Part shown: positions 23,287-46,764 of the stretch, one piece after another
Numbering within the stretch: the first letter of the stretch is position 1
Layout: each line of letters starts with the position of its first letter
Assembly (NCBI GenBank): GCA_964630555.1
Contig: CAZVVD010000003.1
Span: 1 to 61,457, forward strand
DNA: 61,457 bases
Source: an uncultured Verrucomicrobiota bacterium
GTDB taxonomy: Bacteria > Verrucomicrobiota > Kiritimatiellia > JAAZAB01
Reading direction: 5' to 3'
Position numbers and translations under genes: made by a program
The notes under the pieces: model-generated
Database searches by the model: none
What the model saw: the letters and a program-made list of their open reading frames with translations, nothing else
What the model was told of the DNA's origin: nothing

Positions 23287-23463
23287 TGAGGTTGTGCTCC
23301 GCCGGGCGGGGCGGCTACCAGTGTTCAACGTCAGCTCCCCGTTCGGCTGGAAGGCGGCGCAGCCTTGCCATTCCAGCCCTACAATTCGCACCCCTAACCG
23401 CTGACGGCATTCGTGGGTATCCGCGCCCATCCGCGTCATCCGCGGTGGATATCTTTTCCAATC

Positions 23464-28887: not shown

Positions 28888-28915
28888 TTCGGAAACCATC
28901 AACAAAAGGATGATC

Positions 28916-31900
28916 ATGAACACACGTTTCAGGTTGCGTTGGCAACCCTGGATGGGCGTGCTAGGGCTGGCGATCGCCGCTATTTCAGGGCCAGTGGCCG
29001 GACAAACCCCGGCGGCGGACTACAGCAAGGGATTCGCCAGGTTTTACGCCCTGGGGCTGCCCGTCCTGACCACTAACGCCGCCTATGTCAAGCTGGAGGT
29101 CTGGATGGACTACATGCAATTCGGGCGTGACCTCTCCTTCTCCGATCTGAAGCAGGAGGGCAACGCCTGGATGCTGACGCAGGATCCGGCCGAAGGCAAA
29201 GCCTGGTTCGTCGCCGATTATTGCCGGAGGGTGGAAGTCTACGATCAAAAGACGCTCCTGGCAAAGCGCAACGCCAAAATGAAAGAAGAGCGCGCCAAAA
29301 CCAAAAACGCAAAAACACTGGCCGCCAAGATCAGCGCCTGGATGATGGACGATCAGGACAGAAAGCCGGCGGGACAGTGGAAACCGGCCGATCCGAAAAA
29401 AGACATCGCGCGCATCATTGAGTTTCTCAAGAAAAGATCCGCTACGGGCTCTGCGCGCTACGACCCCTTGAAAGCCTATTCCGGTTACGGCGCCCTGCTG
29501 CTTGCCGCCATTCATTTCCACCGGATGGGATACACCCATGAAGCCAATGAAATCGTCGGCCTGCTCTTCGAAGTGTCCCAGGATCAACGCCTGGTGCTCA
29601 CCCAGGGACTGGGCCGGCTTGCTGACGCCTGTTATTCGGACATCACGGATGCGTTCTTCGCGACCGGCGACTGGAATGCCTACGCCCAGGCCCTCCATTC
29701 CCTCCTGACCGAGTTTTCCACGTCCTGGGACAAGTCGCCCGCGGTCCAGCGCCTCGCAGAACGCGTGACCGCCCGCGCCGCCCAGAAACAGGCGCCCCCT
29801 ATTGCCGGCGAAGATCTCACCGACGAGGACCGTCAGCTCGCCAACGAACTGGCCGCCGCCACCAACCTGAACCGGTCCCTCATGGCCGGCATGCTCCGGG
29901 GCCAGAACTGGATTCTGCCCGACCCCTCGCTGGCGCAACACCTGCCGCCGGGATCGAGCAATGTTCTTTCGCGCATCCTGGACCGCGGCATCAAGTCCGT
30001 CCCCCTGCTGCTTGCCCTGGTCAAGGACGACCGCATGACCATGGTGAATATCCAAAGTTTGAATCGAACCAGCTTCACCTCCTTCTCGGACGACGAGGGC
30101 ATGACCGAGGAACGCATCCAGCAGACGTACGATTCCCTGCAGCGTCCGGCGTCACGCTCCGAAATCGCCGTGATGCTCCTTGCACCGCTCTTAAAGCAGG
30201 AAGACGATCTGCGCGGCAATCGTCCGAAGCCGACGCGCGACGAGATTCACGAGCAGGCCGCCGCCTTCTACGCAGCGCACAAGAACCAATCGCCCGCGGA
30301 ACTGGCGCACTATTTTCTCAAAGAAGGCGACGACAACCAGCGCAACATGGCGATCCATTTGCTGATCCAGTCCGGCGGCACCCAGGACGTGGCGGCCATC
30401 GAAGGCTTCCTGCTGAACCCGGACAACCTGATGCGCCGATTGCAGCTGGCCAGCATGTATGTGATGCAGCGCAAAGAAAAGGCGAAGGATTTTGTCGGGC
30501 ACTATGCAGACCTGCTCAACCAACAGATGACCAACACCAGCGATAACGAGATGTTCAAGCGGGACGATTTCAAGCAGGCGGTCGAGCGGAACCTGACCCA
30601 GATGCAACTCATGACCGCCGCGCCCAAACCCTTCGCGGAGATCCTGGACAAGATCACGGCGGGAACGAACGACTGGGATATATCCGCCACAGGTTTATAC
30701 CAGGCCATGCAGGGGAAAAAGCCGGACGAACTTTTGCCGCCGCTGCTCAGCGCCGCCGGAAAGGCAACCAACGCGGACTTGCGGATCAAATTGATCGGCA
30801 TGACCATGGCGGCGACCCACATGCAAAACGCCGAGGAGGAGGAGGAGGAGATTCCGCCGCCCCTCGATATCGCGAAAACGGCCGCCTTGTGGAAACCCCT
30901 GCTGGCCGACAACCGCGCCGCCGAAACCGAGACCCCCTTTTCCGACCGGCTCGGCACGGTCGGCGACACGGCCGCGCAAGCGATCGAAATGCTTTACAGC
31001 GATGAAGCGCAGATGGATCCCTACGCGCGCTACTGGAGCCAGGGCCCGAAGATAGCGCGGGTCATGAAAGCCCGGGCCGAGGCCCGGCTGGCTGGAAAAA
31101 AAGCCGGCGAACTGCCGCCCTTGCCGTCGGCCGACAAAGTGAGCAAGGCGGAGAGAAAGAAAATTGTTGATCAACTCCTGCGGACCAAGGCGGACGAACT
31201 GGCGGCGCAGATCAAAGCCCTGGGCCCGGATAGCCTGGCGGCCCTCGGCGAGGAAGCCGATGATAACACCGTCCTCAGCGCCAAGCTGGCGCCGTTGGCC
31301 AACACCATCACCGAGGTTGCCTTCAAGCCGCACAAGGGAGAAAAAGCCACGGAACTGGATGCGCTCAAAGGCAAACAGCTCGACAAAATACAGATTGAGC
31401 TGCTGCTGGGAGTTTGCCGCCGATTCACGGAGGAGGGCAAACCCTGTTATCTCGCCATTAAACGCCAGGCCGATTTGGACGGCACCACGGTCCGAATGCA
31501 GGTGTTGTCAGCCACAAACATGAGCGCCGACACACGTCAGTATTTCGGACACTTCAGTTTCGGTTCCAACAAGAAGGCCATGATCAACGCCCTCTTGCAT
31601 GGTCCGGAGCTGAATGCCGGGGCCATGTGGTTCGTCGAACAGAAGGCCTCGCCGGCGCCGGGCACGAACACCCCGGCAGCGCAGGCCCACGAGACCGACG
31701 AGTTGACCGAAAAGGACATGCTGGAAGAAGCCAGCGCTTCGATGAATGAACGCCTCGCCGAACAGCAACTGGAATTCTGGAAAACAGCGGAGGAATTATG
31801 CCAAGGCAGCGGCAACAGCTGCCAGGCGGCGGCAATCATGTTTTTCGGAGTTCCGGTGCTTCCCGAGGGCGCAAAGACCCAGGGGAATGTGCGGAACCGC

Positions 31901-31936
31901 ACACGCTTTTCCTCCGGCGAGGGGATCATCGAATAA
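28916..31936 (+). CDS. Orphan secreted, predominantly alpha-helical 1,006-aa protein with no family recognised.
   Basis: ORF track 28826..31936. Start at ATG 28916 (or 28910) after AAGGA. Signal peptide MNTRFRLRWQPWMGVLGLAIAAISGPVAGQ. K/E/N/M-rich composition and visibly lower G+C than its neighbours. E6 run at 30835-30852. Confidence 0.7.
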   Translation: MNTRFRLRWQPWMGVLGLAIAAISGPVAGQTPAADYSKGFARFYALGLPVLTTNAAYVKLEVWMDYMQFGRDLSFSDLKQEGNAWMLTQDPAEGKAWFVADYCRRVEVYDQKTLLAKRNAKMKEERAKTKNAKTLAAKISAWMMDDQDRKPAGQWKPADPKKDIARIIEFLKKRSATGSARYDPLKAYSGYGALLLAAIHFHRMGYTHEANEIVGLLFEVSQDQRLVLTQGLGRLADACYSDITDAFFATGDWNAYAQALHSLLTEFSTSWDKSPAVQRLAERVTARAAQKQAPPIAGEDLTDEDRQLANELAAATNLNRSLMAGMLRGQNWILPDPSLAQHLPPGSSNVLSRILDRGIKSVPLLLALVKDDRMTMVNIQSLNRTSFTSFSDDEGMTEERIQQTYDSLQRPASRSEIAVMLLAPLLKQEDDLRGNRPKPTRDEIHEQAAAFYAAHKNQSPAELAHYFLKEGDDNQRNMAIHLLIQSGGTQDVAAIEGFLLNPDNLMRRLQLASMYVMQRKEKAKDFVGHYADLLNQQMTNTSDNEMFKRDDFKQAVERNLTQMQLMTAAPKPFAEILDKITAGTNDWDISATGLYQAMQGKKPDELLPPLLSAAGKATNADLRIKLIGMTMAATHMQNAEEEEEEIPPPLDIAKTAALWKPLLADNRAAETETPFSDRLGTVGDTAAQAIEMLYSDEAQMDPYARYWSQGPKIARVMKARAEARLAGKKAGELPPLPSADKVSKAERKKIVDQLLRTKADELAAQIKALGPDSLAALGEEADDNTVLSAKLAPLANTITEVAFKPHKGEKATELDALKGKQLDKIQIELLLGVCRRFTEEGKPCYLAIKRQADLDGTTVRMQVLSATNMSADTRQYFGHFSFGSNKKAMINALLHGPELNAGAMWFVEQKASPAPGTNTPAAQAHETDELTEKDMLEEASASMNERLAEQQLEFWKTAEELCQGSGNSCQAAAIMFFGVPVLPEGAKTQGNVRNRTRFSSGEGIIE

Positions 31937-32206: not shown

Positions 32207-33186
<980 letters not shown>

Positions 33187-33190
<4 letters not shown>

Positions 33191-34062
33191 GCCATTCCCT
33201 GTTCAAGTATCTCAAGGCGGAAGATATCCGGAAACTGGCTAGCTTCGAGTTCGCGCCCCGCGCGCTCGTGGAAGGCTACCTGGCCGGCCGGCACAAGGCC
33301 TACACGCGCGGCTCGTCCATCGATTTCCGCGATTACCGCGAGTACGTGCCGGGCGACGACCTGGCCCTGGTGGACTGGCGGGTCTTTGCCCGCACCGACC
33401 GCCAATACCTGCGCACCTACGACCAGGAATCGCACCTGGAATGCCATGTCTTCCTGGACAGCAGCGCGTCCATGGGGTTCGGCCGCAGCCTGACCAAGCT
33501 GGAGTACGCGTCATTCTTCGCCGCCGCGCTCTGTTACCTCGTGATCAAAAACACCGACCGCGTTTCGCTCCAGATTTTCGACGATAAGATCAGGAAGTAT
33601 TATCCGCTGGGCAGCACCGGGCGCCACCTGCAAACCCTGATGCACGCCCTGGAGCACAACCGGCCCGGCAACAGGACCTCGGCGGCCGAGGCCCTGAAGC
33701 GTTCCTTTCCCCTGCTGAAGACCAAGGGAAGCCTGGTGGTCATTTCCGACTTCTTCGACGATCCCGCCGCCATTTTCAACGCCCTGAACCCCTACCTGCA
33801 CCGCGGCTTCCGCGTTCATTTCTTTCATATCCTGACGCCCGAGGAAATCGATCTTGAAGACCGCGGGTTGCTGACGTTCGCGGACATGGAAACCGGCCGG
33901 CGGGTCATCGCCCACAGCGCCAACCTGCGCGTCCCGTACCGCCAGGCCATCCAGCGCCACGTCGACAGCCTGCGCGAACTCGCCATGCGCCGGCAGGTCG
34001 ATTACATGCTCGCCCGGACCGACACCCATTATTTCAAACTCTTTGACAGGTTGACGCAATGA
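33187..34062 (+). CDS. DUF58-family protein (vWA-like partner of MoxR).
   Basis: 291 aa. GSSIDFRDYREYVPGDDLALVDWRVFARTDRQYLRTY ... VFLDSSASMGFG. ATGA overlap with moxR. Confidence 0.9.
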
Positions 34063-36089
34063 CGTTTGTCATCGGCAATAGCGCCCTGTGGCCGTTCCTG
34101 TTGCTGCTGGCCGTGCCCCTGGCGCTGCATTTGTTTGCGCGCAGCCGGCCGCCGGTCTATTTCTTCAGCTCCGTCGAGTTCATCCGGCGCATCGTCCGTT
34201 CCACCCTGCGCATCAAGCGTCCCAAGGACTGGCTGCTGCTGCTGCTGCGCACGCTGATATTTGCCGCCGTGATCCTGCTGTTCCTGCGCCCGGTGTATTT
34301 CGCGCAACGCAAGCTGGCCGGGCCGTTCCAGAAGAGACATGTCGCGATCGTCGTTGATGCCACGGCGTCCATGGCTTACCCGGACGGCGCGCAGACGCGC
34401 TTTGCCACGGCCTGCGCCGAAGCCGCCGCCATTCTCTCCGGGCTCTCCGCGCGCGATACCGCCAACCTCGTCTGGCTCAGCGCGAACCCCGAATCCGTTT
34501 TTCCGGAAATGGGCGTCAACTTCGGTTTTTTGCAGGAGGTCCTGCGCCAGCGGACGGTGACGGTCGAGGCCGGCGCCATCGACAAGACTCTGAGCCTGGC
34601 CGTCAACCTGCTGGAAGGACAGGAAGGACGCCGCGAAATCTGCGTCATTTCCGATTTTCAGAAATCGGCCTGGGAATCGGTGCAAATCACCCTGCCGCCC
34701 GCCATCGATTTGATCAAGATCAAAATCGGCGCCGTTGACGGCGCCAATGCTGCCCTGATGGACATCCGCCTGGATCCTTGCCGTCCGCTGGTTGGCGAGG
34801 ATACCGCGATTTCTTGCGAGGTCTGCAATTATTCGCCCCAACCCGTGCGCAAAACCGTATTCCTCAGCGTTGGCGAGCGCCGCCTTTCCCATGATTTGAT
34901 GGTTCCGGCCTGGAACAAAGCCACGGCCGTTTTCAAGCACCGTTTCACCGCGGCCGGGGTTGTGCCGCTAACCGCCCGCCTGTCCGAAGACCTATTCCCA
35001 GCCGACGACCGCATGGCATCGGTCGCAGAAGTCAGCGAGTTCGTGCGCGTCGGCATGTTGCCCGCGGAGCCGCTTACCGCGGCAGCCTGGCAGCGCGCCC
35101 TGCGGGCCCTCGGCTGGGTCAAGCTGGATGTCTTGGCGTCCGCCGGCCAGGCTGGGAGTCCCTCGCGGGACGCCCTTTTTCTATCCGGCTGGGATGGCGG
35201 CGACAGCGCGCCATTGCGCCAGGCCCTCCTGGCCGGCCGCGCGATCGTCTGTACCCCGGCCCGCGACCTGCCGCTCAGCCGCATCGCGGCCCTGGTGGAC
35301 GGCGCGCAGCGGCCGGACGGCGACCTTTTCCGCTGGGAGCAGGACAAGGCCGGGCATACGCTCTCCATCAGGCGGGAGCAGGATCCAGTCTTCCGCATTT
35401 TCAGCAACGGCGAATTCGGCGATTTGTCGCGGGCTTCCTTCGGCGGGCGTTTCATGTTTCCGGCGGCGGCCCTGCCAGCGGGCGACCTGCTCCTGGCCTA
35501 TGACGACGGGCAGCCGGCGCTCATTCGGTACCCGGCCGGCCTGGGCCTCCTCTACCTGTGGAACATGCCGCTCGACCCCGAATTCAGCAACTGGCCGAAA
35601 CGCTCCGACTTTCTCCCCTTCCTCGCCGAGTTGCTGCTCGCCAGCCGAAGCGGGTCGGGTGGGGAATACGAGGTGTCCCGGCTGACCACCGGTGAACAAG
35701 CGGGACTGCGGCTGGACCGCGACCTGCCGTCTTCGGAACTGGCCCTGCGCGACGAGGACGGGCAGGCGATCCCCTTGCGCGAGACGCGCGGATCGGGCCA
35801 CGCGATGTGGCTGGCCGGGCAATCCCTTAACCCGGGACTCTACACCTGGCAGCACCTGGACAAACCGCTGGCCTGGACCGTGGTGGAATTTCCGTCCGTC
35901 GAATCCGACTTGCGCGTCATTCCGCCGGAAGAATTGCAGCAACGGAACCTGGGCGCCGCCATCGTCGCGCGCGGCTTGAGCCTGCGCGACATGCACGAAG
36001 GCATAGCGCTTTGGCCCTACCTGCTGGCGCTTGCCCTGGCGGCTCTGCTGGCGGAGGGCCTGGCGGCCTGGTGGGCGGAACGATCATGA
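34059..36089 (+). CDS. BatA-type protein: aerotolerance-regulator N-terminal double-TM domain plus vWA domain plus C-terminal TM.
   Basis: 676 aa. FLLLLAVPLALHLFARSRPPVYFFSSVEFI (BatA_N pattern). HVAIVVDATASMAY (MIDAS). ATGA overlaps at both ends. Confidence 0.85.
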   Translation: MTFVIGNSALWPFLLLLAVPLALHLFARSRPPVYFFSSVEFIRRIVRSTLRIKRPKDWLLLLLRTLIFAAVILLFLRPVYFAQRKLAGPFQKRHVAIVVDATASMAYPDGAQTRFATACAEAAAILSGLSARDTANLVWLSANPESVFPEMGVNFGFLQEVLRQRTVTVEAGAIDKTLSLAVNLLEGQEGRREICVISDFQKSAWESVQITLPPAIDLIKIKIGAVDGANAALMDIRLDPCRPLVGEDTAISCEVCNYSPQPVRKTVFLSVGERRLSHDLMVPAWNKATAVFKHRFTAAGVVPLTARLSEDLFPADDRMASVAEVSEFVRVGMLPAEPLTAAAWQRALRALGWVKLDVLASAGQAGSPSRDALFLSGWDGGDSAPLRQALLAGRAIVCTPARDLPLSRIAALVDGAQRPDGDLFRWEQDKAGHTLSIRREQDPVFRIFSNGEFGDLSRASFGGRFMFPAAALPAGDLLLAYDDGQPALIRYPAGLGLLYLWNMPLDPEFSNWPKRSDFLPFLAELLLASRSGSGGEYEVSRLTTGEQAGLRLDRDLPSSELALRDEDGQAIPLRETRGSGHAMWLAGQSLNPGLYTWQHLDKPLAWTVVEFPSVESDLRVIPPEELQQRNLGAAIVARGLSLRDMHEGIALWPYLLALALAALLAEGLAAWWAERS

Positions 36090-38302
36090 ATATCAACCCG
36101 ATCTTGCCTTTGGATTATCTCGTGCTGTTGCTGGCCGCGGTCTGCGTCGCCGGCGTATTCCTGGCATGGCACAGTGCCGCCAAGGCTCCGCGCCGGTTGC
36201 GCCTGCTGCTGGCGGCCCTGCGTCTGCTGGCCCTGAGCGGCCTTGGATTGCTTGCCTTGAATCCCGGGCGCTGGCAGGCGCAAGCCGTGGATCCCAAGGC
36301 CGCCTGGGCCCTGCTGATCGACCGCAGCCTCAGTATGTCCACCCCGGACGCCAACGGAACCACCCGCTGGACCGAAGCCTGCCGCCTGGCCGGCAAGGCC
36401 GTGGCCACCGCGCGCAAGGATAGCGCGCGGATTTTCACTTTTGCCGGAGAGCTCGAAGCGCCGGTCGCCGATCCCGCCCGGCTGGGCAACCTCACACCCG
36501 ACGGACCGGATACCGACATCCCCGATTCCATCTTCGCGGCGCTCACCGCCTTCCGCGCCGGCGACACCAGGCTGACCGGCCTGCTCGTGCTTTCCGACGG
36601 ACGCCAGGTGGCCGCGACTGAGCCCCGCAAGGCAACGCTCCTGGCGCGTTCCCGCGGATCGCCGATCTTCACCCTCGCGCTGGGCGGGCCCGTGACCAAC
36701 AAGGACCTTTCCATCGCCATGGAACGCAGGCAATACGTGACGTTCACGGGCCAGAAGCTGAAACTCATGGCGCGCGTGACCAACGCCGGATTGGGCGCGG
36801 TCTCCCCGACCGTCCAACTGATCGATCCGGCCGGAAAAGTCGTTGCCGAACAGAAGGTGGTTTTTACCAATGACGGCGTCATGCCCGTCCAACTCGAGAT
36901 CGCGCCGCCGGAGCACGGTTATTTCCAGTATCGCGCCCGCCTGCCGGCCTGGGGCGGCGACGTCCGCGAGGCCAACAACGAGTCCGTCGCCGGCGTCGCC
37001 GTGCTGGCCAGTAAAATCCGGATTTTCATGGCGGAAGGCACCCCGTTCTGGGACAGCAAGTTTTTGACCCAGCTCCTGCGCCAGCAAACCAACATGGACG
37101 TCACCTCCGTTTACCGCCTCTCGGCGAACCGCTACTTCAGGGTGGATACCGACGCCTCCCGGGTGGCCGACGCGTCCGAACCGATATTCCCGGATGACGC
37201 CGCGCTGGCAAAATACGATTTGATGATCTTCGGGCGCGGCGCGGAATATTTTCTGACGCCGGACCGCATCCAAGGCTTGAAGAACTTTGTCGGCCGCCAG
37301 GGCGGCTGCGTCATCTTTGCCCGCGGCAAACCCTACAGCGGCAGCTTTCCTGAATTGGAACCACTCGAACCGGCCTCATGGGGCGAGATCATCGGGCAGC
37401 CGTTTCGTTTGCGGCCGACCCAGGAAGGCGAATACGCGGGCTTGTTCGGCGAACTGCTGCCCGACCGCGGCAACCCCGTCTGGACCCAATTGTCGCCGCT
37501 GCGGCAGGCGCATCGCTGCCAGCGGCTGAAAGCTTTTACCCGCGTGCTGGCCGAGGGCGTCGGCGCCGCCACCGACGCCGGCGCCGCTTTCTCGTTCCCG
37601 CTCGTCTTCAGCCAGCGCTACGGCAAGGGCATCGTGGTCGTGGTCAACGCCGAGGACCTCTGGCAATGGTTCTTTTTTCCCGCCCTCAGCACGGCCGGCG
37701 AAATTTACCAGGATTTCTGGATTCAATTGTTCACCTGGGCGGGAACATATTCCGATTTCCTGCCCGGCCGGCAATATGCCCTGCGCCTTGGCGAAAGCCT
37801 GGTCTATCCGGACGTGCCCGTCCGGGCCCGAATTTTCCGGCGGGCCGCCGCGGCCGAAACCAATGCGCCCTCGATCCGGGTGTTGCAGGGCGACCGGCAG
37901 GTGCTCGAACTGCCCGCCACCCCCGCCGGCGACGATGGGCGCTGGGACGCTATTTTCAGCCTCAAGCAGCCCGGGATGTACCGCGTGGAACTGGCCGGAT
38001 TGGACCCGACCTCGGTCGAGGGCGTGTATGCCACGCTCGGCATCAGGGCGCCGCCTTCGGAAATCGATGATTTCAGCGCTGACCCGGCTTTCCTGGCCAA
38101 ACTGGCTGAGGCTTCCGGCGGACGCTCGATCGGGGAGCAAGATCTGGAATCCGCGATCCATGAACTCGACCCGGCCACCCGGCCAATGAACCTGGAGAAA
38201 GCCGCATGGGCGCCGCTGTGGAACCGCGCCTGGGTGCTGAGCCTGCTGTTGGGTCTGCTCGGCCTCGAATGGTTGATCCGGCGCCGCAACGGATTATTAT
38301 AG
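36086..38302 (+). CDS. BatB-like membrane protein: vWA-like domain plus amidotransferase-like domain plus C-terminal TM anchor. Paralogue of 123..3302.
   Basis: Start at ATG 36086 (MNINPILPLDYLVLLL) overlaps the upstream stop. ALLIDRSLSMS. KIRIFMAEGTPFWDSKFLTQLL. C-terminal GLLGLEWLIRRRNGLL. Confidence 0.8.
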   Translation: MNINPILPLDYLVLLLAAVCVAGVFLAWHSAAKAPRRLRLLLAALRLLALSGLGLLALNPGRWQAQAVDPKAAWALLIDRSLSMSTPDANGTTRWTEACRLAGKAVATARKDSARIFTFAGELEAPVADPARLGNLTPDGPDTDIPDSIFAALTAFRAGDTRLTGLLVLSDGRQVAATEPRKATLLARSRGSPIFTLALGGPVTNKDLSIAMERRQYVTFTGQKLKLMARVTNAGLGAVSPTVQLIDPAGKVVAEQKVVFTNDGVMPVQLEIAPPEHGYFQYRARLPAWGGDVREANNESVAGVAVLASKIRIFMAEGTPFWDSKFLTQLLRQQTNMDVTSVYRLSANRYFRVDTDASRVADASEPIFPDDAALAKYDLMIFGRGAEYFLTPDRIQGLKNFVGRQGGCVIFARGKPYSGSFPELEPLEPASWGEIIGQPFRLRPTQEGEYAGLFGELLPDRGNPVWTQLSPLRQAHRCQRLKAFTRVLAEGVGAATDAGAAFSFPLVFSQRYGKGIVVVVNAEDLWQWFFFPALSTAGEIYQDFWIQLFTWAGTYSDFLPGRQYALRLGESLVYPDVPVRARIFRRAAAAETNAPSIRVLQGDRQVLELPATPAGDDGRWDAIFSLKQPGMYRVELAGLDPTSVEGVYATLGIRAPPSEIDDFSADPAFLAKLAEASGGRSIGEQDLESAIHELDPATRPMNLEKAAWAPLWNRAWVLSLLLGLLGLEWLIRRRNGLL

Positions 38303-38320: not shown

Positions 38321-41110
38321 ATGAACACGACGGATCACACCGCGGGCTGCGATCTCAATGCCGCGCTGACGCGAATGAAGCACAGCTGGCAATCTGGCTT
38401 GCTGCTGTGCGCCGCCGTGCGCCTGGCCGGCGAAGCGCTGGTGGCCCTCTCCGTCTACGGTGTGGCCGACGCCTTCCTCGCCCTGGCGGACGGCGTCCGC
38501 ATCGTCCTGGGAATCCTGCTGGCCGCCGCGCTGGCCGCGCTCGCCGTGGCGCGGGTGATCCGCATGTTACGGATCACGAACGAACAGATGGCCCGGCGGG
38601 GCGACTCCCTTCTGCGGAGTTCCCGACGCGCCGTGCTCAGCGCCTGGGAACTGGACCGTTGGATTTCCGCCGGCGGAGCCGGCGGAGTCAGCGCCGGGCT
38701 CACGCGCTTCCTGGTCGAACGCAGCATCGGGCTGGCGACCGCCAGCCTGCGCGGCCTGCAATGGAAGGAGTATTTCCCTTTCGCCGAAGTCCGGCGCGAA
38801 TTGAAAGCGGCGGGCTTGAAACTGCTGATCCCCGTTTTCCTGCTGATCCTCAATCCAAACGCCGCCAGGACGGTTTTGGGACGCATGCTCCTGCCAGGGC
38901 GCGACATTCCCCCCTATAGCCGCTACACCCTCACGGTTTCCCCAGCCCAACCTTCCGTGTTTTATGGCGGCACGGTCGAATTGGCCGTGGACATCGTCGG
39001 CGGCCCGGTCAACTCGCCGGTCGCCTTCGTCACCCGTTACCAGGGCCGGCGCCAATCGGTGGCCTGTTTCCAGGAAAGCCCCCAACGGTTCGCCCAGCGC
39101 CTGGAGCGGGTCGTCAGCCCGGTCGAGGTGTGTTTCAGCATGGGCAAAGCCCGCAGCCGCTGGCATCCGGTGCAGGTCATTTACCAGCCGATCATCACCC
39201 TGGCCGAGGTGGCCATCAGCCCGCCGGCGTATACCCTCCTTCCCCAGCGCCGATTCTTCGCCGGAACCGAAAGCCTGGCGGGCATCCGGGGCTCGCGGGC
39301 CTCCTTGACCCTCACCAGCAACCGCCCCCTCCTGGACGGCGTCATGACCCTTACTTACCGCAGCGGCACGGGACGCGACGAAGCCATGCGCGGCCTGAAA
39401 ACCGGCGCGCACACCGTCACGTTCGACTGGACCCTCAAGGAGCCGGCCCAGCTGGAGCTGTCCGTGCGCGACATGCGCGGCGCAAAAAACAAGGAGCCCT
39501 ACAAGCTGGATCAAAAGGTCCTACCGGATAATCCTCCGGAAGCGGCCATCACCGAGCCGGTCGGCTTTGCCCTGGCCACGCCCAAAATTACGCTGGCACT
39601 GCAGGGGTATGCCGCCGACGATTACGGGCTGCGCCGGGTGGAATTGGTCCAGACGGTGGCCGGCTACCGCGACCGGGCCAAATTCATTGGTCCGGCAAGC
39701 CCGGAGCGCCGCTTCGATTTCGACGCGCCGGCCGATCTGCAGGCGATCGGCGTCGAGGCGGGGCAGCTCCTGGAATTCTACCTCGAAGCCTCGGACCAGA
39801 ACCCGCTCATGACCGGGGCCACGGCCTCCGATATCGTTCGCGTTCGCATCATATCCGAGGACGACTACGCGGCCATCCTACGGGAGCGCACGACCCTGGA
39901 CGCCTTCCTAAACCGCTACCGCCGGCTGACGGAAAGCCTGGCCGAGGTAAAAACCGCCTTGCGCGAATTCAAGGCGGCAGCCGAGTCGGGCCGCGCCCCG
40001 GCGTCCGAACTGGAACGCCTTCGGGAGCGGGCGGCGCGGGTTCATGAGACGGCGGCGGACCTGTTCTACAAGACCTCGACGGATTTCCCGATTTTCGATT
40101 GCGAAGCGACCCTGGCGGACGCGCTGGCGGCCCTGATCAATCCCCTGCGGAAGAACGAACAAATGCTGGCGCTGGTCATGACCTCGGACCCGCGTCTGCC
40201 ACAAATCATCGACCTCATGCTGGCGCGGCTGGGGGAGCAGGAAGCAAGCCTGGGCGCCGAAACCCAACGCGCCGAAGATATCGCCCGCGTGGCGCGCGTG
40301 ATGGAAGCAGCCGCCGTCTTCAATGCCATCGTGCTCCGGCAGACTGCCCTGGTCAGGCGGCTGGCCCGCTTCGAGCCGCCGGCCTCCGAAAAAAGCAATG
40401 CGCTCCTGGCCGCCCTCGGCCGGAACCAGGCCGAAATCCGGGAGGCCCTGGCCGCCCTGTGCGACCGCATCGAGGAGGCGGCGGGCCGCCTGCCGGAAGA
40501 CTATGCCGAGCTTGGGGACAGCGCCCGGGAATTTGTCGACGCCCTCGCCGAAAGTGGCATCGCGGAACTGATGCAGGCGGCGGTCACGGCGGCGGGAAAC
40601 CAAGCCGGCCCGCAAACGGCCCGCCATGCCCGCCATGCCCTGGAGAAACTGCTCGAACTGGCCAAGTCCCAGGGCAACTCGCCCTTCGGGGGCTTAACCG
40701 GCAAGCGCATGAATTTCGGCGTCGGCCCGGGCTTGAAAGACACCCTGGAACAGATGCTGGCGGCGATGAACCCGGGACAGGGCAACGGCGCCAAACCGGG
40801 CTTCTTCGGCGTCGGCTGGGGCGGCGGCAATACCGACGACGGCTTCGCGATGGCGCAAACGTCGCTGCTCGACATCCCGGTCTTCGGTCCGGCGCGTGAC
40901 ATGCCGCCCGCTCCCGGCGGCGGCAGCGGGACGGGCCAGTCGAATGCCACCTGCCAAGCCGGCGCGCCGGTCACCGCCACGGCCGCCGACACGCTGACGG
41001 TGCCGGCAAAAGGGCCGCCGCCGGGCGAAAGCCTGCCGGCGGAAAACATTCCCGAGAAATACCGCGAAGCGCTCAAGCGTTACTTCAACCAGGAGGGCAA
41101 CCCTTCATGA
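38321..41110 (+). CDS. DUF4175-like membrane-anchored coiled-coil protein (929 aa). Short paralogue of 3299..9355.
   Basis: N-terminal TM pair. DDYGLRRVELV motif. Roughly 280-aa helical region. C-terminal PEKYREALKRYFNQ. 18-nt gap upstream and ATGA overlap downstream. Confidence 0.8.
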   Translation: MNTTDHTAGCDLNAALTRMKHSWQSGLLLCAAVRLAGEALVALSVYGVADAFLALADGVRIVLGILLAAALAALAVARVIRMLRITNEQMARRGDSLLRSSRRAVLSAWELDRWISAGGAGGVSAGLTRFLVERSIGLATASLRGLQWKEYFPFAEVRRELKAAGLKLLIPVFLLILNPNAARTVLGRMLLPGRDIPPYSRYTLTVSPAQPSVFYGGTVELAVDIVGGPVNSPVAFVTRYQGRRQSVACFQESPQRFAQRLERVVSPVEVCFSMGKARSRWHPVQVIYQPIITLAEVAISPPAYTLLPQRRFFAGTESLAGIRGSRASLTLTSNRPLLDGVMTLTYRSGTGRDEAMRGLKTGAHTVTFDWTLKEPAQLELSVRDMRGAKNKEPYKLDQKVLPDNPPEAAITEPVGFALATPKITLALQGYAADDYGLRRVELVQTVAGYRDRAKFIGPASPERRFDFDAPADLQAIGVEAGQLLEFYLEASDQNPLMTGATASDIVRVRIISEDDYAAILRERTTLDAFLNRYRRLTESLAEVKTALREFKAAAESGRAPASELERLRERAARVHETAADLFYKTSTDFPIFDCEATLADALAALINPLRKNEQMLALVMTSDPRLPQIIDLMLARLGEQEASLGAETQRAEDIARVARVMEAAAVFNAIVLRQTALVRRLARFEPPASEKSNALLAALGRNQAEIREALAALCDRIEEAAGRLPEDYAELGDSAREFVDALAESGIAELMQAAVTAAGNQAGPQTARHARHALEKLLELAKSQGNSPFGGLTGKRMNFGVGPGLKDTLEQMLAAMNPGQGNGAKPGFFGVGWGGGNTDDGFAMAQTSLLDIPVFGPARDMPPAPGGGSGTGQSNATCQAGAPVTATAADTLTVPAKGPPPGESLPAENIPEKYREALKRYFNQEGNPS

Positions 41111-41874
41111 TCGCGGCCTCCAAGCAAACGGGTCCATCGCAAGCGGTGAAACAGGCAAGCTGCGCCGGCCGCAGCCTGCCCGCAAGGCTTTGCCCGCCGA
41201 TGCCGGCGGGTCAAACGCGTCCCTCCAAAAGCGCCCTGGCGGGAGTGATCCTGGCCGCCGGCCTGCTGGCGGGGCCGGTTGCGGCCAAGGAAGGCACCAT
41301 CCAGTGCGCCAATTTGATTTACGGCGGAACGCATACCTCGCGTTGTTTCAGCGACGAATTCCTCAGCGCGGTCCAGAAACAGACCACGATTCCCACCGAG
41401 CGCCGCTTCAAGAGCGTTAAGCTCGGTTCCGATGAGTTATTCCAATACCCGTTCGTGGTGATGACTGGCGAGTCGAATTTTCATTTCACCGGGCCGGAAC
41501 GCGAGAACCTGAAAAAGTATTTGACCCGCGGCGGTTTCCTGCTGGCTTCCGCCGGATGTTCCAACAAGGACTGGGACCGCGCCTTCCGGCGAGAAATGCG
41601 CGTGATGTTCGGCGATCACAGCCTGAAGAATATCGAGATGACCCATCCCCTCTTCCACACCGTGCACGAGATCAAGGAGTTAAAGCTGCAACACGCCGGC
41701 GACAACGCGCAGCTGCAGGGCATCGAATCGAACGGCAAGCTGGCGGTCGTCTATTCACCCCACGGCTTGAACGACACCTCCCACACCGTGGGTTGCTGCT
41801 GTTGCGGCGGCAACGAGATCGTCAATTCGCTAGAAATGAACGTGAATATCGTCGTCTACGCCTTGTTGTATTAA
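41107..41874 (+). CDS. DUF4159-like exported protein with a C-terminal GCCCCGG motif.
   Basis: 255 aa. Signal/TM ALAGVILAAGLLAGPVAA. CANLIYGGTHTSRCF. GGFLLASAGCSNKDWDRAFRREM. CCCC is encoded at 41794-41805. Confidence 0.8.
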   Translation: MIAASKQTGPSQAVKQASCAGRSLPARLCPPMPAGQTRPSKSALAGVILAAGLLAGPVAAKEGTIQCANLIYGGTHTSRCFSDEFLSAVQKQTTIPTERRFKSVKLGSDELFQYPFVVMTGESNFHFTGPERENLKKYLTRGGFLLASAGCSNKDWDRAFRREMRVMFGDHSLKNIEMTHPLFHTVHEIKELKLQHAGDNAQLQGIESNGKLAVVYSPHGLNDTSHTVGCCCCGGNEIVNSLEMNVNIVVYALLY

Positions 41875-41878
41875 ACCC

Positions 41879-44800
41879 ATGAACCAGCTCCGGCCATGCC
41901 TGCTCATTGTTAGCGCCCTCCTGGCGGCAAGCCTTCCGGCGCCGGCCATCCCGACCGCGCCCAGGATCGAACCGACCCCGGCCGTCATCTCGAACGCCCC
42001 GCCCCCCCTGGTATGGCACACCAGCCTGAAGCCGGCACTGCTCAAGGCCGCCGCCGAATACCAGCCGGCGCTCGTGCTTTTCAGCACGCCCGCCTGCCCG
42101 TGGTGCCTGCGCCTGAAAGCAGAAATGATGGATGACCCCGACACCCACGCCCTGCTTCAACATTTTGCGCTGGTTGAAATCGACGCCGGCGACGATCCCG
42201 AAATGGCCGCCGCCTACCAGATCGCCGGTGTGCCGACCCTGGTTGTTCTTTCGGCCGGCGGCGACGTTCAGCAATATGCCTCGGGCTATCGAACACCGCA
42301 AGAGGTGCGCGAGGTCTTGAAGGCCGCCTTGAATCCGGAATTCCTGCGCCGCCAGGACCCCGCCTATTCCGCCCTGATGAAAATGCTGGCCGACCAGAAA
42401 GTGCCCGCCGATCAATGGCCGGATATCCTGACCGCCCTGGGTTCTCCCGTAAAGCGCAAGACGCTGCATGACGCCATCCTAGGCCTGGCGCCGTTTCCCA
42501 AACAAGACCTGGCCGGCATGCTGCGCCATCCCCGCCTGGCCGTGCGCCTGGGCGCGCTGGAAATATTGGAGGAAATGACCGGGGACGCCTTCGGGTTCGA
42601 CCCCTGGCTCGCCCCGGGCGCGACCGAAAACCAGGCTGCCGCGGATCAATGGTCGGCCTGGGTCTCGTCCACCAACAGACAGGCCACCCTATATGCCACC
42701 TTGACCCAGGACCAGATCAACGCCTATATCCGCGACTTGATTTCCGATCATCCCGATCGCGCGCGGCGCGCCCGGCAGATGCTTCATAACGGCGGCCCGT
42801 CAGTGGCCGGCGCCCTGGCCGGGTTCCTGGAGGAAAATCCGGGATTACCCCCGGCCGCCGCCATGACCGTCAAGGAGGTGCAATATGCCAATCTGCTGGC
42901 GGGGATCGACGGCAGCGACCCCCATTCCCTGGCGCACCATCTGGTCTTCGGTTCGCTGGATGTCCGCCAGAGCAGTATTCCCAAATTGATGACGGCCGGA
43001 GCCGGCGCGCTGGTGATCCTGCAGGATTTCCTGAACGATCCCGACCCCATGCTGCGCGAGGCCGCGATCGACACCTTGATCGCCGCCAACAGCATGAGCG
43101 CGCCCGCCTTGCTGGAAAAACGGCTCAAGGTGGAAAACGATCCGGAAGTGGTCTGCGCGATGCTGCGCGGTCTGGGCCGCGTCAAGAGCAAGCGGGGGCT
43201 GGCCGTGCTGATCTCGTACCTGGACCATGCCAACGAGGACCTGGCCGTCACCGCCCTGAACAGCGTCACCCGTTTGAAGGCCAAAGCAGCCGTGGCCCCC
43301 GTGGAAGCATGCCTGAAAGACCCGCGTTGGCGCGTCCGGGTCGCGGCCCTGGAGGCGATCGGCGCCTTGAAAACAAGCACTCTGACCGATAAGGTCGTCG
43401 CGCTATTGAACGATCCCGACGAATTCGCGCGTTATACCGCGGTTAAGACGCTGTCCTTGATTGCCGATAAAAAAGCGGCGCCCAAGCTCGAAAAGGTTTT
43501 CCTCAAGGAGGACGGGCTGAAGGGCGCTGTGGTCGCGGCCTTTGTCAGTATGGAACTGCCCCTGCCGGCAAGTTTCAAGCCGGCTTTGGCCGGCAAAAAC
43601 CCGGAGGTGCTGCTCTCCGTCATCGAGGCCATCGACTCGGACCAGAAGCCCTGCATCGACCTGGCCTCCGATTTCATTAATCACGAAAACCCCGATGTCG
43701 CCTGCGCCGCTATTCGCATTGCGGCCGCGCACGGCATGAAGATCCCCGCCATCCGCGCCCGAATCGTCGAGACGCTCATATCCGGCTCTCGGGAAAGAAA
43801 ATTGGCAGCGCTGGAGGCCATCCCCCCGCCCGAGGCCAAGGATCGGCTGCCTTCTTTTGGGGCTCCCGCACCGCCGCCGGCGCTTGCGGCGCCGGGAACA
43901 AACCCTCCGGCCCCCATCGATTCCCTCTTCGACGATTTCCTTGGCGCCGGCGGGGCCAGCCCGACTCCTGCAGCCCAGCCCGCTCCTGCAACCCCCGCCC
44001 CGGCAGCCCCGCAAGGGGTTGCGCTGGACGATATCCTGACCGCATTTTCTCAGGCCGACGCCGGCCGGACGACAGGCGGCGTGTCCGCCGCCGCGTCCCC
44101 GGAAAGCGCACACCCCGGAGAGCGGTCCCCTGCGCGCTACACCACGGAACGGTTATTGCAGGAAGTCGACACACTGCGGGCCGGGTCCGACCCCGAAATC
44201 TCTTTCCGGGCCGCCCTGTTGCTTACCCGCTACGGCAGTCCGGCGGGCCTGGCCTATCTCCAGAACGGGCTGGCGGAGCGGTCCGTCGCGGAACGGCTGG
44301 CGGTCGCCGACAGTCTCGACGGCGTGGCCGGCAGGGCGCCGAGCCATTGCCTGCGTTTGCTGCTGAACGATCCCGCCGACACGGTCCGCCAAACGGTCAT
44401 CGCGTCTGCCCTGGAAAGTCTCGATACCCCTGCGATCCTGGATTTCTTGTTCGAAGAGCTTTTGCGCCGCGGCACACGCCTCAAGCCCTACGAATTATAC
44501 ACCTACGAATTATCGAACGCGGACCGCAACCCGGCGGCCAGGCAGAACCTGCTCAAGTGGGCCCGGCGCCTGATCGCGGAAAGCACGGACCCGGAGACCC
44601 AGGATCTGGGAATATTCCTGCTGGAAGGATATGGAACCAAGCAGGATGCCCAACGCATCCGTCCTTTCCTGCAAGCCGAGAACCCCTTCCTGCGCCGCGC
44701 GGCCTATCATGCGCTCGGCAAACTGGATACCCCGGCATTTACCAACCTGGCCGGCGCCGCCGCGTCCGATTCGTCCGAATATGTCCGCACCGTCGTGCCC

Positions 44801-46393
44801 GACATTTACAACCGCGGAAGATCGCAATGGATTAATTATTTCGACCTGGAGCATTTCTCGTACAATTATTCTTCTTTCTCCTCGTATGACCGGCAAAGCC
44901 GCCCCTTGCCGCCGGATATCGAAGCGCTCTTGTTCAGGCTGACCCGCGACGCATCGCCCAAGGTGCGGATCGAGGCGTTTTTCAGTCTGCTCGAAAACCG
45001 CAAAGCACTGAACCTGGCCGAATTTGCCGCGACCATTGACAGTTTTCCCGACCGCATGGAAATCCGTTCGCGCGTTACGGATTATCTCAGCTCCAACTTC
45101 GAGAATCTCGGTAAGGGGTTCGGCATCCTGTTGCGCTACCTTGATGACAACCGCGGGGACAGCGAGCGCTTCCAAAAGATACGCAAGCATTTCGACATGG
45201 GGGACGAGGAAGAGGCGGATGCCGCGGCCCTGTCGGCCCGGTTGGCCAAACCGTCCGCTCGCATGGCGGTTTACCTGAGCACAAACGACAACCGGCAAGC
45301 CGCCAACGCGCAACGGATCAAGATGGTGTTTTTCACCAGCGCGGGCTGCGCCGACTGCGCCCGCGTGAAGAGATTCCTGCCGGAGCTGCGCGAATTGTTC
45401 CCGTGGCTGGATGCTCGGACCCACGACTTACGCACGATCAGGGCCATGAAGCTGAACGAGGCCTTGTGCGAAAGATTCGGCGTGCCCGACAACCTGCGCC
45501 TGGTCTCCCCCGCCGTCTTCGCCAACGGCGGCTTTCTCATCAAGAAGGACATCACCTTCGAACGGCTGGCTGATCTCCTCGCGCGTTCGGCGACCATGTC
45601 CGCAGAGGACTGGCTGGCCGCGCCGGAAGTGGACTTGGCGGCGGCCGGACATGCCATCGCCCGGCGCTACGCGGCACTTTCGCCGCTGCTTGTGGCCGGC
45701 AGTGGATTTCTGGACGGCATCAACCCCTGCGCTTTCGCGACCCTGATCTTCCTCGTTTCGTACCTGCAGATCGCGCGCCACAAACCGCGCGAAACCGTCC
45801 AGGTTGCCGCCGCCTTCATCAGCGGCGTGTTCCTGGCCTATCTCGGGCTGGGCCTCGGGTTGGCACAGATCATCTCCCGGATGATGGTGCTCAACAAAGC
45901 AAGCCTGGTGCTCAACTGGGGATTGGCTGCCTTGGTCCTGGTATTGATGGTGTTGAACATACGGGATGGCATTTTATGCCTGCAGGGGCGCTTGGCGGAA
46001 ACGGCGCTTCAGCTTCCCGCATTTTTAAAGAAGGCCACTCACATCGTCATTCGCCGCGGCGCCCGTCACGCCCGTTTTGTAGTCGCCGCGTTTATCGTCG
46101 GCTTGGTCATCTCCCTGTTGGAATTGGCCTGCACGGGCCAGGTCTATGCCCCGACGATCGGATTTATCGTCCAGACCCAGGGACTTTCGGCTCGCGCTGT
46201 CGGCCTGCTCATCCTGTATAATGCTGCGTTTATTCTGCCGCTGATCGCCGTGTTCACGCTGGTTCTTTTCGGTCTGACCGCAGGGCGAATGACGCTCTGG
46301 CTCCAGCGGCACGCCGCGGCCGTCAAGTTCGGCACGGCCGGCCTCTTCCTGGCTCTCTTTATCCTTTTCTTTATCTGGGCCGGGCCGCGCTGA
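41879..46393 (+). CDS. 1,504-aa fusion: signal peptide, thioredoxin-like domain (CPWC), HEAT array, P/A linker, HEAT array, second thioredoxin/glutaredoxin-like domain (CADC), and a 6-TM DsbD/CcdA-like thiol-disulfide transporter domain.
   Basis: CPWC at 42095-42106 in the context ALVLFSTPACPWCLRLK. HEAT-like units: PRLAVRLGALEILEE, DPMLREAAIDTLI, DPRWRVRVAALEAIGAL, DEFARYTAVKTLSLI, NPFLRRAAYHALGKL, SPKVRIEAFFSLL. P/A-rich linker at about 43800-44080. CADC at 45347-45358 in MVFFTSAGCADCARVK. TM Cys in GINPCAF (45728-45730) and LELACTGQ (46130-46132). Starts 4 nt after the DUF4159-like gene. Confidence 0.85.
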   Translation: MNQLRPCLLIVSALLAASLPAPAIPTAPRIEPTPAVISNAPPPLVWHTSLKPALLKAAAEYQPALVLFSTPACPWCLRLKAEMMDDPDTHALLQHFALVEIDAGDDPEMAAAYQIAGVPTLVVLSAGGDVQQYASGYRTPQEVREVLKAALNPEFLRRQDPAYSALMKMLADQKVPADQWPDILTALGSPVKRKTLHDAILGLAPFPKQDLAGMLRHPRLAVRLGALEILEEMTGDAFGFDPWLAPGATENQAAADQWSAWVSSTNRQATLYATLTQDQINAYIRDLISDHPDRARRARQMLHNGGPSVAGALAGFLEENPGLPPAAAMTVKEVQYANLLAGIDGSDPHSLAHHLVFGSLDVRQSSIPKLMTAGAGALVILQDFLNDPDPMLREAAIDTLIAANSMSAPALLEKRLKVENDPEVVCAMLRGLGRVKSKRGLAVLISYLDHANEDLAVTALNSVTRLKAKAAVAPVEACLKDPRWRVRVAALEAIGALKTSTLTDKVVALLNDPDEFARYTAVKTLSLIADKKAAPKLEKVFLKEDGLKGAVVAAFVSMELPLPASFKPALAGKNPEVLLSVIEAIDSDQKPCIDLASDFINHENPDVACAAIRIAAAHGMKIPAIRARIVETLISGSRERKLAALEAIPPPEAKDRLPSFGAPAPPPALAAPGTNPPAPIDSLFDDFLGAGGASPTPAAQPAPATPAPAAPQGVALDDILTAFSQADAGRTTGGVSAAASPESAHPGERSPARYTTERLLQEVDTLRAGSDPEISFRAALLLTRYGSPAGLAYLQNGLAERSVAERLAVADSLDGVAGRAPSHCLRLLLNDPADTVRQTVIASALESLDTPAILDFLFEELLRRGTRLKPYELYTYELSNADRNPAARQNLLKWARRLIAESTDPETQDLGIFLLEGYGTKQDAQRIRPFLQAENPFLRRAAYHALGKLDTPAFTNLAGAAASDSSEYVRTVVPDIYNRGRSQWINYFDLEHFSYNYSSFSSYDRQSRPLPPDIEALLFRLTRDASPKVRIEAFFSLLENRKALNLAEFAATIDSFPDRMEIRSRVTDYLSSNFENLGKGFGILLRYLDDNRGDSERFQKIRKHFDMGDEEEADAAALSARLAKPSARMAVYLSTNDNRQAANAQRIKMVFFTSAGCADCARVKRFLPELRELFPWLDARTHDLRTIRAMKLNEALCERFGVPDNLRLVSPAVFANGGFLIKKDITFERLADLLARSATMSAEDWLAAPEVDLAAAGHAIARRYAALSPLLVAGSGFLDGINPCAFATLIFLVSYLQIARHKPRETVQVAAAFISGVFLAYLGLGLGLAQIISRMMVLNKASLVLNWGLAALVLVLMVLNIRDGILCLQGRLAETALQLPAFLKKATHIVIRRGARHARFVVAAFIVGLVISLLELACTGQVYAPTIGFIVQTQGLSARAVGLLILYNAAFILPLIAVFTLVLFGLTAGRMTLWLQRHAAAVKFGTAGLFLALFILFFIWAGPR

Positions 46394-46536: not shown

Positions 46537-46764
46537 TTAACCGCAAAGAACGCAGAGATCGCAAAGATAAAACAGATTCTGGTTTAAGGCGGGCTTGCGC
46601 CCGCCGCGGCTGGCGTCACGCCGGCCCTCCCAAAACAAACACGCAAAAAAGTGTATCTTCACGGGATAGCGTCTAATAATATTTCTATTGAAATCAGCGC
46701 CATCTTATTTTTTGGTGGTTAACAACCTGCATTTCTATGTGTTCTTTGCGATCTTTGCGGTTAT
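46537..46764. repeat. MITE-like element of about 228 bp bounded by inverted termini (TT)AACCGCAAAGAACGCAGAGATCGCAAAG / reverse complement ATAACCGCAAAGATCGCAAAGAAC. It encloses a REP-2 copy (46588-46665).
   Basis: The left terminus (46537-46573) and right terminus (46741-46764) were read as reverse complements. The element ends 7 nt before the GT28 start codon. Confidence 0.7.

Follow-up and report, generated by a model that had tools for sequence, protein, structure and literature searches.

The gene treated here lies at positions 41879 to 46393 of a stretch of 61,457 nucleotides (nt), in the following called the window, which comprises positions 1 to 61,457 of contig CAZVVD010000003.1 (assembly GCA_964630555.1) of an uncultured Verrucomicrobiota bacterium from the Kiritimatiellia (JAAZAB01). 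It encodes a protein of 1504 amino acids (aa) that is composed, in this order, of a signal peptide, a thioredoxin (Trx) domain, a first array of HEAT repeats, a disordered linker, a second HEAT array, a glutaredoxin (Grx)-like domain and a membrane domain of six transmembrane (TM) helices with two cysteines (Table 1). A preliminary description of the locus, made from the letters alone, had listed the same parts in the same order, and all of them were found again, with cysteine coordinates that are exact: the CPWC motif of the Trx domain (C73/C76, nt 42095-42106), the CADC motif of the Grx-like domain (C1157/C1160, nt 45347-45358), and the membrane cysteines in GINPCAF (C1284, nt 45728-45730) and LELACTGQ (C1418, nt 46130-46132). 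The protein is a real and widely conserved envelope protein of Lentisphaerae, Kiritimatiellia, and Verrucomicrobia. Its gene family is already present in public databases, where those members that are annotated go by the generic names 'HEAT repeat domain-containing protein' and 'hypothetical protein'; here it is read as a new architectural variant of the DsbD/CcdA/ScsB-type electron transporters.

Table 1. Features of the gene for the 1504-aa protein and of the genes preceding it in the operon; coordinates are those of the window.
Feature	Position (nt)	Strand	Residues	Remarks
Whole gene	41879-46393	+	1504 aa	ATG start; open reading frame (ORF) list and translation
Sec-type signal peptide	41879-41947	+	1-23	MNQLRPCLLIVSALLAASLPAPA then IP; cleavage site placed by eye
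N-terminal Trx-fold domain	42011-42328	+	45-150	CPWC; cis-Pro-type GVPT
HEAT/alpha-solenoid array 1	42335-43819	+	153-647	Pfam HEAT_2; structure model
Disordered Ala/Pro-rich linker	43826-44143	+	650-755	pLDDT 37-48
HEAT/alpha-solenoid array 2	44144-45244	+	756-1122	High-pLDDT helical repeats; small beta-hairpin at aa 984-996
Grx-like Trx-fold domain	45317-45592	+	1147-1238	CADC; Grx-type 'SPAVF..GG' cis-Pro motif
Six-helix membrane domain	45683-46381	+	1269-1501	C1284 in TM1; C1418 in TM4
MoxR AAA_3 ATPase	32207-33190	+		Pfam
DUF58/VWA protein	33187-34062	+		Pfam
BatA-N double-TM and VWA membrane protein	34059-36089	+		Pfam; NCBIfam two_anch TIGR02226
Membrane protein of ~738 aa, weak VWA	36086-38302	+		Pfam
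Membrane protein of 929 aa	38321-41110	+		No family match (Pfam)
DUF4159 protein, exported	41107-41874	+		Pfam, 5e-31

A protein search returned about 85 full-length homologues from NCBI, JGI, ENA, and Logan assemblies, most of them 1,410-1,640 aa long, with identities of 26-64% (mostly 35-64%) and E-values of at most 1e-107 throughout, many of which are given as 0. When one genome per GTDB species was scanned, relatives were found in 150 genomes, the carriers being Lentisphaerae/Victivallales, Kiritimatiellota and many Verrucomicrobiota; cultured carriers are Haloferula sargassicola NBRC 104335, Luteolibacter pohnpeiensis KCTC 22041 and Verrucomicrobium sp. BvORR034. The architecture, which had been called unusual, is so in comparison with the characterized DsbD proteins, but it is common within the Lentisphaerae/Kiritimatiellia/Verrucomicrobia clade. 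An origin of the long ORF by misassembly or by a frameshift that joined separate genes is practically inconceivable: separately encoded Grx-6TM proteins and shorter Trx-HEAT(-Grx) forms do exist and would agree with it, and nothing else speaks for it, whereas the same full-length architecture of 1,410-1,640 aa recurs in many independent assemblies of all four sources and in the cultured Haloferula, Luteolibacter, and Verrucomicrobium strains. Because the full-length fusion is conserved across independent assemblies, a chimera is ruled out.

The structure was modeled with AlphaFold2 in two parts, aa 1-1128 (75 homologues as input; mean predicted local distance difference test score, pLDDT, 85.9; predicted template modeling score, pTM, 0.77) and aa 1129-1504 (pLDDT 86.9, pTM 0.79). 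The signal peptide seen earlier is borne out by a hydrophobic segment at aa 6-28, by low pLDDT at the N-terminus and by homologues that start alike. The N-terminal domain, whose CPWC and GVPT motifs are read straight from the sequence, matches Pfam Thioredoxin_2 at aa 58-147 (E 8e-13, 49.1 bits) and Thioredoxin_7 (1e-8, 35.5 bits), both above the gathering cut-offs, and retrieves thioredoxins and protein disulfide isomerase (PDI) from the PDB sequences down to 4e-10. The model shows the beta-alpha-beta pattern of the fold, and CxWC is kept in every homologue that has the domain, which is thus a genuine thioredoxin fold of the Thioredoxin_2/Thioredoxin_7 type with a conserved CxxC.

The two HEAT-like arrays of the preliminary description are HEAT repeat solenoids. 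Pfam HEAT_2 matches seven stretches of the whole protein (E 5.7e-39, 132.7 bits), and array 2 scanned alone gives E 4e-17 and 62.6 bits. Array 1 is modeled with about 30 helices at pLDDT above 90, and both arrays together with about 55 helices at high confidence. In Foldseek, the model of aa 1-1128 matches CAND1, karyopherin-beta and SF3B1 at 1e-10 to 1e-6, which are the classical cargo-wrapping HEAT solenoids. The best-conserved stretch of the N-terminal half lies inside array 1 at aa ~190-262 and reads AVRLGALEILEE...GFDPW...W..W. Residues R223, W243, and W484 are invariant in both full-length alignments, while D512 is invariant in one (A2) and nearly so in the other (A4). The linker between the arrays is present as described, with 25 Ala, 21 Pro and 10 Gly among 106 residues, but its span differs from the nt 43800-44080 first given (Table 1), and the homologues share no consensus there. 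In total, about 860 residues of HEAT repeats separate the two redox domains; to our knowledge, periplasmic HEAT repeats of this length are unusual for bacteria.

Glutaredoxin-like and six-helix membrane module

The CADC segment, first described as thioredoxin- or glutaredoxin-like, has the Trx/Grx fold in the model, and its CxxC is invariant in an alignment of 82 family sequences and present in 78 of 78 genome matches. The Grx-type cis-Pro motif is conserved in the same alignment as 'APAVF..G'. Pfam Glutaredoxin matches 62 of the 82 family members at E <= 1 (best 3.7e-8), the profile of the domain finds PDB glutaredoxins at 2.6e-4, and Foldseek relates it to thioredoxins with probability 1.0. 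The domain is therefore a genuine thioredoxin fold with a conserved CxxC. The six TM helices that had been predicted, with one cysteine each in GINPCAF and LELACTGQ, appear in the model as six long helices (pLDDT 80-95) with these cysteines in TM1 and TM4. The motifs G..DG.NPCAF.T (helix 1) and E..CTGQ.Y.P (helix 4), both cysteines included, are invariant in the 82 sequences; among the genome matches, NPC is found in 74/74 and the TM4 cysteine in 70/74. The pTM of 0.79 suggests that the two domains of the model are docked in a defined way. A third cysteine of the membrane domain, C1367 (nt 45977-45979, 'DGILCLQGR'), lies at the cytoplasmic end of TM3 and is kept in most full-length homologues; its position is occupied by Ala in a Verrucomicrobiales group without the N-terminal Trx domain.

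The Grx-like domain and the six helices form a large family of their own. A word-indexed search gave more than 1,487 matches, and an exhaustive HMMER search 3,199 clusters (50% identity) at E <= 1e-3, of which 2,193 at E <= 1e-10. Many members are stand-alone proteins of about 365-650 aa, the complete ones with a signal peptide before the Grx domain, and many are named 'cytochrome c biogenesis protein CcdA/glutaredoxin' by JGI. These proteins, of the form signal peptide - (Grx-like)1-2 - six TM, are 35-60% identical to the C-terminal module described here and carry the same invariant motifs, but they are without HEAT arrays, without a Thioredoxin_7-type N-terminal domain and without a conserved MoxR/DUF4159 neighborhood; none of the neighborhoods inspected was conserved in a way that would point to clients. 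Some of them (P0046, P0051, P0071, and others) contain immunoglobulin domains of the DUF1573/HYDIN type or a tandem pair of Grx-like domains. Of the 82 members, 11 match the NCBIfam family OS_HP2 of (seleno)proteins, with values down to 7.8e-15, and the single plasmid match of the module is an unannotated hypothetical protein of Roseburia. Literature searches gave no description of the 1504-aa family, of the Grx-6TM family or of DUF4159 with its CCCC motif (see below), and nothing specific turned up in the literature on the operon, DUF4159, ArsG/DsbD and a link to Akkermansia.

With the helix limits of the aa 1129-1504 model, a count by hand gives about 14 lysines and arginines after helices 1, 3, and 5, on the cytoplasmic side, and about 4 on the periplasmic side. 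Because of this positive-inside distribution, of the signal peptides and of the stand-alone homologues that carry one as well, an N-out topology is predicted, in which both CxxC domains and the HEAT arrays would be periplasmic and helices 1 and 4 antiparallel, as in DsbD and CcdA. Such a predicted placement of both CxxC modules is compatible with a relay through the TM cysteines. A cytoplasmic location of the HEAT and Grx parts was rejected in view of the signal peptides and the positive-inside bias.

A functional definition of the DsbD superfamily has been given (Cho et al., PMC3322552), by which a pair of cysteines at like positions in the membrane domain supplies a thioredoxin-like domain in the periplasm. 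CcdA is described as having six TM helices, arranged as two inverted repeats, of which the first and the fourth helix carry the cysteines (PMC7329351). With its cysteine pair in TM1 and TM4 of six predicted helices and a CxxC thioredoxin-fold domain just before TM1, the Grx-6TM module is in keeping with both descriptions. In hhalign, the family profile aligns to the single sequence of E. coli DsbD (P = 6e-4) and to a profile of six DsbD/ScsB sequences (P = 3.5e-3, 199 columns spanning all six helices), and in both comparisons C1284 and C1418 come to stand opposite the DsbD cysteines of TM1 (FTPC) and TM4 (SPC). Matches to the curated models are found in single members: Pfam DsbD_2 in 4 and DsbD_TM in 3 of the 82, both at about 5e-5, and NCBIfam DsbD in 6 at 8e-5. 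The membrane domain is thus probably a divergent branch of the DsbD/CcdA/ScsB superfamily by remote homology, and the module is predicted to work in a CcdA-like manner, yet it falls outside the current curated family definitions.

Compared to the known members, the 1504-aa protein shares with E. coli DsbD the TM1 and TM4 cysteines and the periplasmic CxxC domains on one polypeptide, an N-out orientation (here predicted) and a plausible multi-step relay. It has six helices instead of the eight of DsbD; its thioredoxin-fold acceptor precedes the membrane domain, whereas that of DsbD follows it; its distal periplasmic domain is a thioredoxin, in contrast to the immunoglobulin-like DsbD-alpha; about 860 HEAT residues and a disordered linker stand between its redox domains, unlike in DsbD; and its TM4 motif is LACTGQ rather than SPC, with a similarity below the Pfam thresholds. 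With CcdA, of which a nuclear magnetic resonance structure from T. thermophilus exists (Zhou and Bushweller, 2018, as cited in PMC7329351), the module has in common the six helices (here modeled), the active cysteines on TM1 and TM4 and a thioredoxin-like acceptor outside the membrane, either separate or attached. The solved CcdA is, however, neither among the PDB sequence matches of the module nor among the top 50 Foldseek matches listed for it, the inverted repeat is not detectable in the module by sequence, and canonical CcdA lacks the exported N-terminal Grx-like domain to which the present module is always fused. ScsB, the third DsbD class, is a precedent for lineage-specific periplasmic domains, adjacent dedicated clients and split or fused variants (PMC3322552), but differs in its eight TM helices, its alpha-beta-gamma order and another alpha domain, without HEAT repeats or a MoxR/VWA context.

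Bat-like operon and the DUF4159 protein

The gene is preceded on the same strand by the six genes listed in Table 1. From MoxR (32207) on, the genes are tightly packed and either overlap by ATGA or stand 4 or 18 nt apart; the distance of 4 nt is that between DUF4159 and the gene for the 1504-aa protein, whose stop codon is followed by a gap of 295 nt. With MoxR, DUF58 and BatA-N/VWA genes upstream and this gap downstream, the gene stands, as had been described, at the end of a Bat-like operon. The start of the ~738-aa protein was mechanically set to a TTG at 36011 and is over-extended; an ATG at 36086, which overlaps the stop codon of BatA, is the likely start, and three more ATGA junctions occur in the operon. 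The gene order is identical in every locus examined from Kiritimatiellia, Lentisphaerae, and Verrucomicrobia. Of 80 GTDB loci, 68 have enough upstream DNA, and in 65 of these the gene just before, on the same strand, encodes DUF4159. A glycosyltransferase gene follows downstream in the window, but related loci do not share it.

The operon shares with the Bacteroides aerotolerance (Bat) operon and its spirochaete homologues the combination of MoxR, DUF58 and a BatA-type protein with N-terminal double TM and VWA domain in one operon. It differs in that no tetratricopeptide repeat (TPR) proteins and no BatD were identified, and that two large uncharacterized membrane proteins, the DUF4159 protein with its CCCC motif and the Trx-HEAT-Grx-TM protein stand in their place. 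BatC and BatE are the TPR proteins of the classical Bat operon, which is not known to include a thioredoxin or a protein of the DsbD type. No family match to TPR proteins or BatD was found in the present operon with Pfam and NCBIfam. BatB carries a TPR domain as well (PMC3557215). The label 'Bat-like' thus seems fair, but orthology of the whole operon to the Bat operon would go beyond the data. The MoxR-vWA-YebA system (PMC3495828) is encoded by another operon.

The exported DUF4159 protein has a signal peptide and, in an alignment of 6 orthologues, seven invariant cysteines: C67, C80, C151 (SAGCS) and the run C230-C233 (GCCCCGGNEI, nt 41794-41805). No other proteins of the operon are as well conserved as DUF4159 and MoxR (median identity 62% and 68%, respectively). 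The CCCC run is present in 70 of 72 DUF4159 neighbor genes and in 120 of the 120 nearest database homologues, and two reverse look-ups that started from CCCC-type DUF4159 proteins led again to a Trx-HEAT-Grx gene immediately downstream. The motif is missing from 4I66, a DUF4159 protein of solved structure (E 2.3e-14), which is why the CCCC run appears to be specific to this operon type. Since DUF4159 is the sole operon partner with invariant cysteines, it is, judged by adjacency and cysteine content, the most likely candidate for a client of a redox relay.

Proposed electron relay and competing explanations

The reading that we favor, and hold to be rather probable, is a relay in the inner membrane, in which electrons would pass from a cytoplasmic thioredoxin via the TM cysteines to the Grx and Trx domains and from there to clients held by the HEAT arrays. 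Direction of electron flow, donor, client and role of the HEAT scaffold, as we infer them, would be the following. The protein would be a single inner-membrane protein with its N-terminal 1,250 residues all in the periplasm. C1284 in TM1 and C1418 in TM4, both presumably buried, would take up reducing equivalents from cytoplasmic thioredoxin, as DsbD, CcdA, and ScsB do, and would pass them to the CADC motif of the docked Grx-like domain directly before TM1. From CADC they might reach the HEAT-held clients directly and/or via the CPWC thioredoxin, which may sit on a flexible arm with the linker of about 100 residues as its tether. The HEAT arrays probably dock other products of the MoxR/DUF58/VWA/DUF4159 operon, and DUF4159 would be the first client, kept reduced. 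The arrangement suggests that the function of the operon needs periplasmic reducing power. This agrees with an older suggestion, reported in PMC3557215, by which Bat proteins would either reduce proteins of the periplasm or serve in the export of reducing power.

Several results weigh against this relay, above all the variation of the redox modules among the homologues, which is the main evidence against an obligatory conduit from cytoplasm to periplasm. The majority keep the CxWC of the Trx domain, the CxxC of the Grx domain and both TM cysteines. In Verrucomicrobiales (Luteolibacter, Haloferula, Prosthecobacter, Akkermansiaceae) the N-terminal Trx domain is absent, while the Grx domain, the TM domain and their cysteines are kept. 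In a shortened group the protein stops right after the Grx domain or adds a single anchor helix. Another group has six helices and both CxxC pairs but has lost one or both TM cysteines (NPL..., LALGN...), and Trx-HEAT-only proteins of about 1,100 aa occur in the same operon slot. The variants without the TM domain, the TM cysteines or the Grx-TM part all keep the operon slot and the DUF4159 protein with CCCC. The HEAT region had been described as an insertion between the redox modules; rather than being inserted into a DsbD, it is the conserved core. The HEAT scaffold stays constant, and redox modules are added to it or exchanged, which argues that what matters in the protein are the partners of its scaffold. 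At the two loci searched for a split version, no true pair came to light: neither of the two genes that follow a Trx-HEAT-only homologue (L014) is related to the Grx-TM module, and at a TM-less locus (P0190) no same-strand gene follows and the nearby genes, compared by size and Pfam family only, are unlike the module. Members of the sub-clade with lost TM cysteines are P0194-P0204, L018:10001-14371, L032, L040, L046, and L047, all in the same operon slot.

The family comparisons and the Bat literature add further points of this kind. Neither the whole protein nor the isolated membrane domain matches Pfam DsbD_TM (PF02683) or DsbD_2 (PF13386), even at E <= 10, and NCBIfam gave no DsbD match for the isolated domain either; by the curated thresholds, the protein is not a member of the DsbD/CcdA/ScsB superfamily. 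Of the proposed DsbD/CcdA-type identity, the TM1 and TM4 cysteines and the remote hhalign similarity stand, but a Pfam DsbD match does not. The hhalign probabilities are 28% for E. coli DsbD and 9% for the DsbD/ScsB profile, and a comparison of TM1-3 with TM4-6 by hhalign gave no significant internal inverted repeat. CcdA and DsbD structures are absent from the top 50 Foldseek matches listed for the Grx-TM model against the PDB, which are thioredoxins (rank 1 is 6ibl, an artefact of the kind of a fusion of thioredoxin with a G-protein-coupled receptor). Searches of PDB sequences with phmmer and profiles returned Grx, Trx, and DsbA-like proteins only and no CcdA; this negative is uninformative because E. 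coli DsbD-beta, used as a control, likewise retrieves no CcdA/DsbD chain from the PDB sequences but just spurious CAAX-protease matches. The best curated model is that of the ArsG-family permease (NCBIfam NF040495), which matches 79 of the 82 members with a best E-value of 1.6e-8; on the 1504-aa protein it scores 11.7-13.5 bits against a cut-off of 200, and all 82 members are far below that cut-off. Leptospira bat mutants were reported to be without an oxidative-stress phenotype (PMC3557215), for which reason the label 'aerotolerance' is weak.

In a first alternative, the protein would mainly be a membrane-anchored HEAT scaffold that assembles an envelope complex of MoxR, VWA, and DUF4159 proteins, with the six helices as anchor and with CxxC domains that are structural, metal-binding (e.g., Cu or Zn, together with CCCC) or redox sensors, in place of a catalytic relay supplied by the cytoplasm. 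No part other than the HEAT arrays occurs in all variants, homologues in the same slot do without a TM domain, have a single anchor helix or a Cys-less six-helix domain, Trx-HEAT-only forms exist, and the nearest structural analogues are the cargo-wrapping solenoids (CAND1, karyopherins). We nevertheless regard this explanation as unlikely, since in homologues with a TM domain no feature of the module is better conserved than the two cysteines and the motifs around them, an invariant polar NPC/ELACTGQ core would be needless for a plain anchor, and the Grx CxxC is invariant, with the Grx-6TM module occurring in thousands of proteins that have no HEAT repeats. The same CxxC domains could, in principle, introduce or isomerize disulfides in exported partners and be re-oxidized by the membrane domain, given that CxxC thioredoxin folds are able to act either way, that the N-terminal domain also resembles PDI domains and that several invariant cysteines of DUF4159 could form disulfides. 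The membrane domains of DsbB and VKOR, however, typically have CxxC pairs. That of the 1504-aa protein has none, its single cysteines in TM1 and TM4 align with those of the reductase DsbD, and four adjacent cysteines are hard to square with structural disulfides, so that an oxidase or isomerase appears improbable. The ArsG matches raise a last alternative, in which the six helices would be a permease for small molecules or metals of the DsbD_2/LysE-type group, as ArsG is annotated, for instance an exporter of low-molecular-weight thiols. It is favored by the ArsG-family permease being the best curated model, with 79 of 82 members matched and the whole membrane domain covered, and by the missing Pfam DsbD match of the 1504-aa protein. 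It is quite improbable in view of a score far under the ArsG cut-off (13.5 bits vs. 200) and of the invariant TM1/TM4 cysteine pair with its obligatory periplasmic CxxC fusion, which are hallmarks of electron transporters (PMC3322552).

MoxR/VWA 'Bat-like' operons are very widespread and have been functionally obscure since 1999, and a relay would give them a testable biochemical requirement, turning the idea of 'reducing power' into questions about the cysteines that are kept reduced, about their reductant and about the purpose of their reduction. It would also widen the current picture of DsbD, CcdA, and ScsB by an acceptor that stands before the membrane domain and by a very common module that lies below current Pfam detection. 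The cultured carriers H. sargassicola, L. pohnpeiensis, and Verrucomicrobium sp. make experiments feasible. A proposal that reaches further, and which we put forward tentatively as possible although rather doubtful, is that the Grx-like and six-helix module represents an unrecognized fourth class of the DsbD superfamily, spread over thousands of bacterial lineages, which in Lentisphaerae, Kiritimatiellia, and Verrucomicrobia has been wired through HEAT repeats to a MoxR/VWA machine and keeps the CCCC run of DUF4159 reduced. If so, the old proposal of a supply of reducing power to the periplasm by Bat-type operons would for the first time become tangible at the molecular level.

Flanking genes and sequence elements

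Upstream of MoxR, at a distance of 270 nt, lies a gene (28913-31936, + strand) for a secreted protein of about 1,000 aa without a family match; several related loci (L001, L005, L020, L055) also have a protein of about this length in front of MoxR, and it may belong to the same system. Downstream, about 200 nt past the stop codon of the gene for the 1504-aa protein, there is a perfect 7-bp G+C hairpin (46588-46605, GGCGGGC-TTGC-GCCCGCC) without a T tract, and in a consensus scan of the stretch from the stop codon to the next gene no intrinsic terminator of the canonical kind was called. The window begins with two very large ORFs on the + strand (123-3302 and 3269-9355; 1,059 and 2,028 aa) that have no Pfam match at E <= 1e-5, and on the - strand it carries an ordinary resistance-nodulation-division efflux operon (21841-28212), which consists of an outer-membrane factor, an AcrB-type pump and a HlyD-type adaptor.

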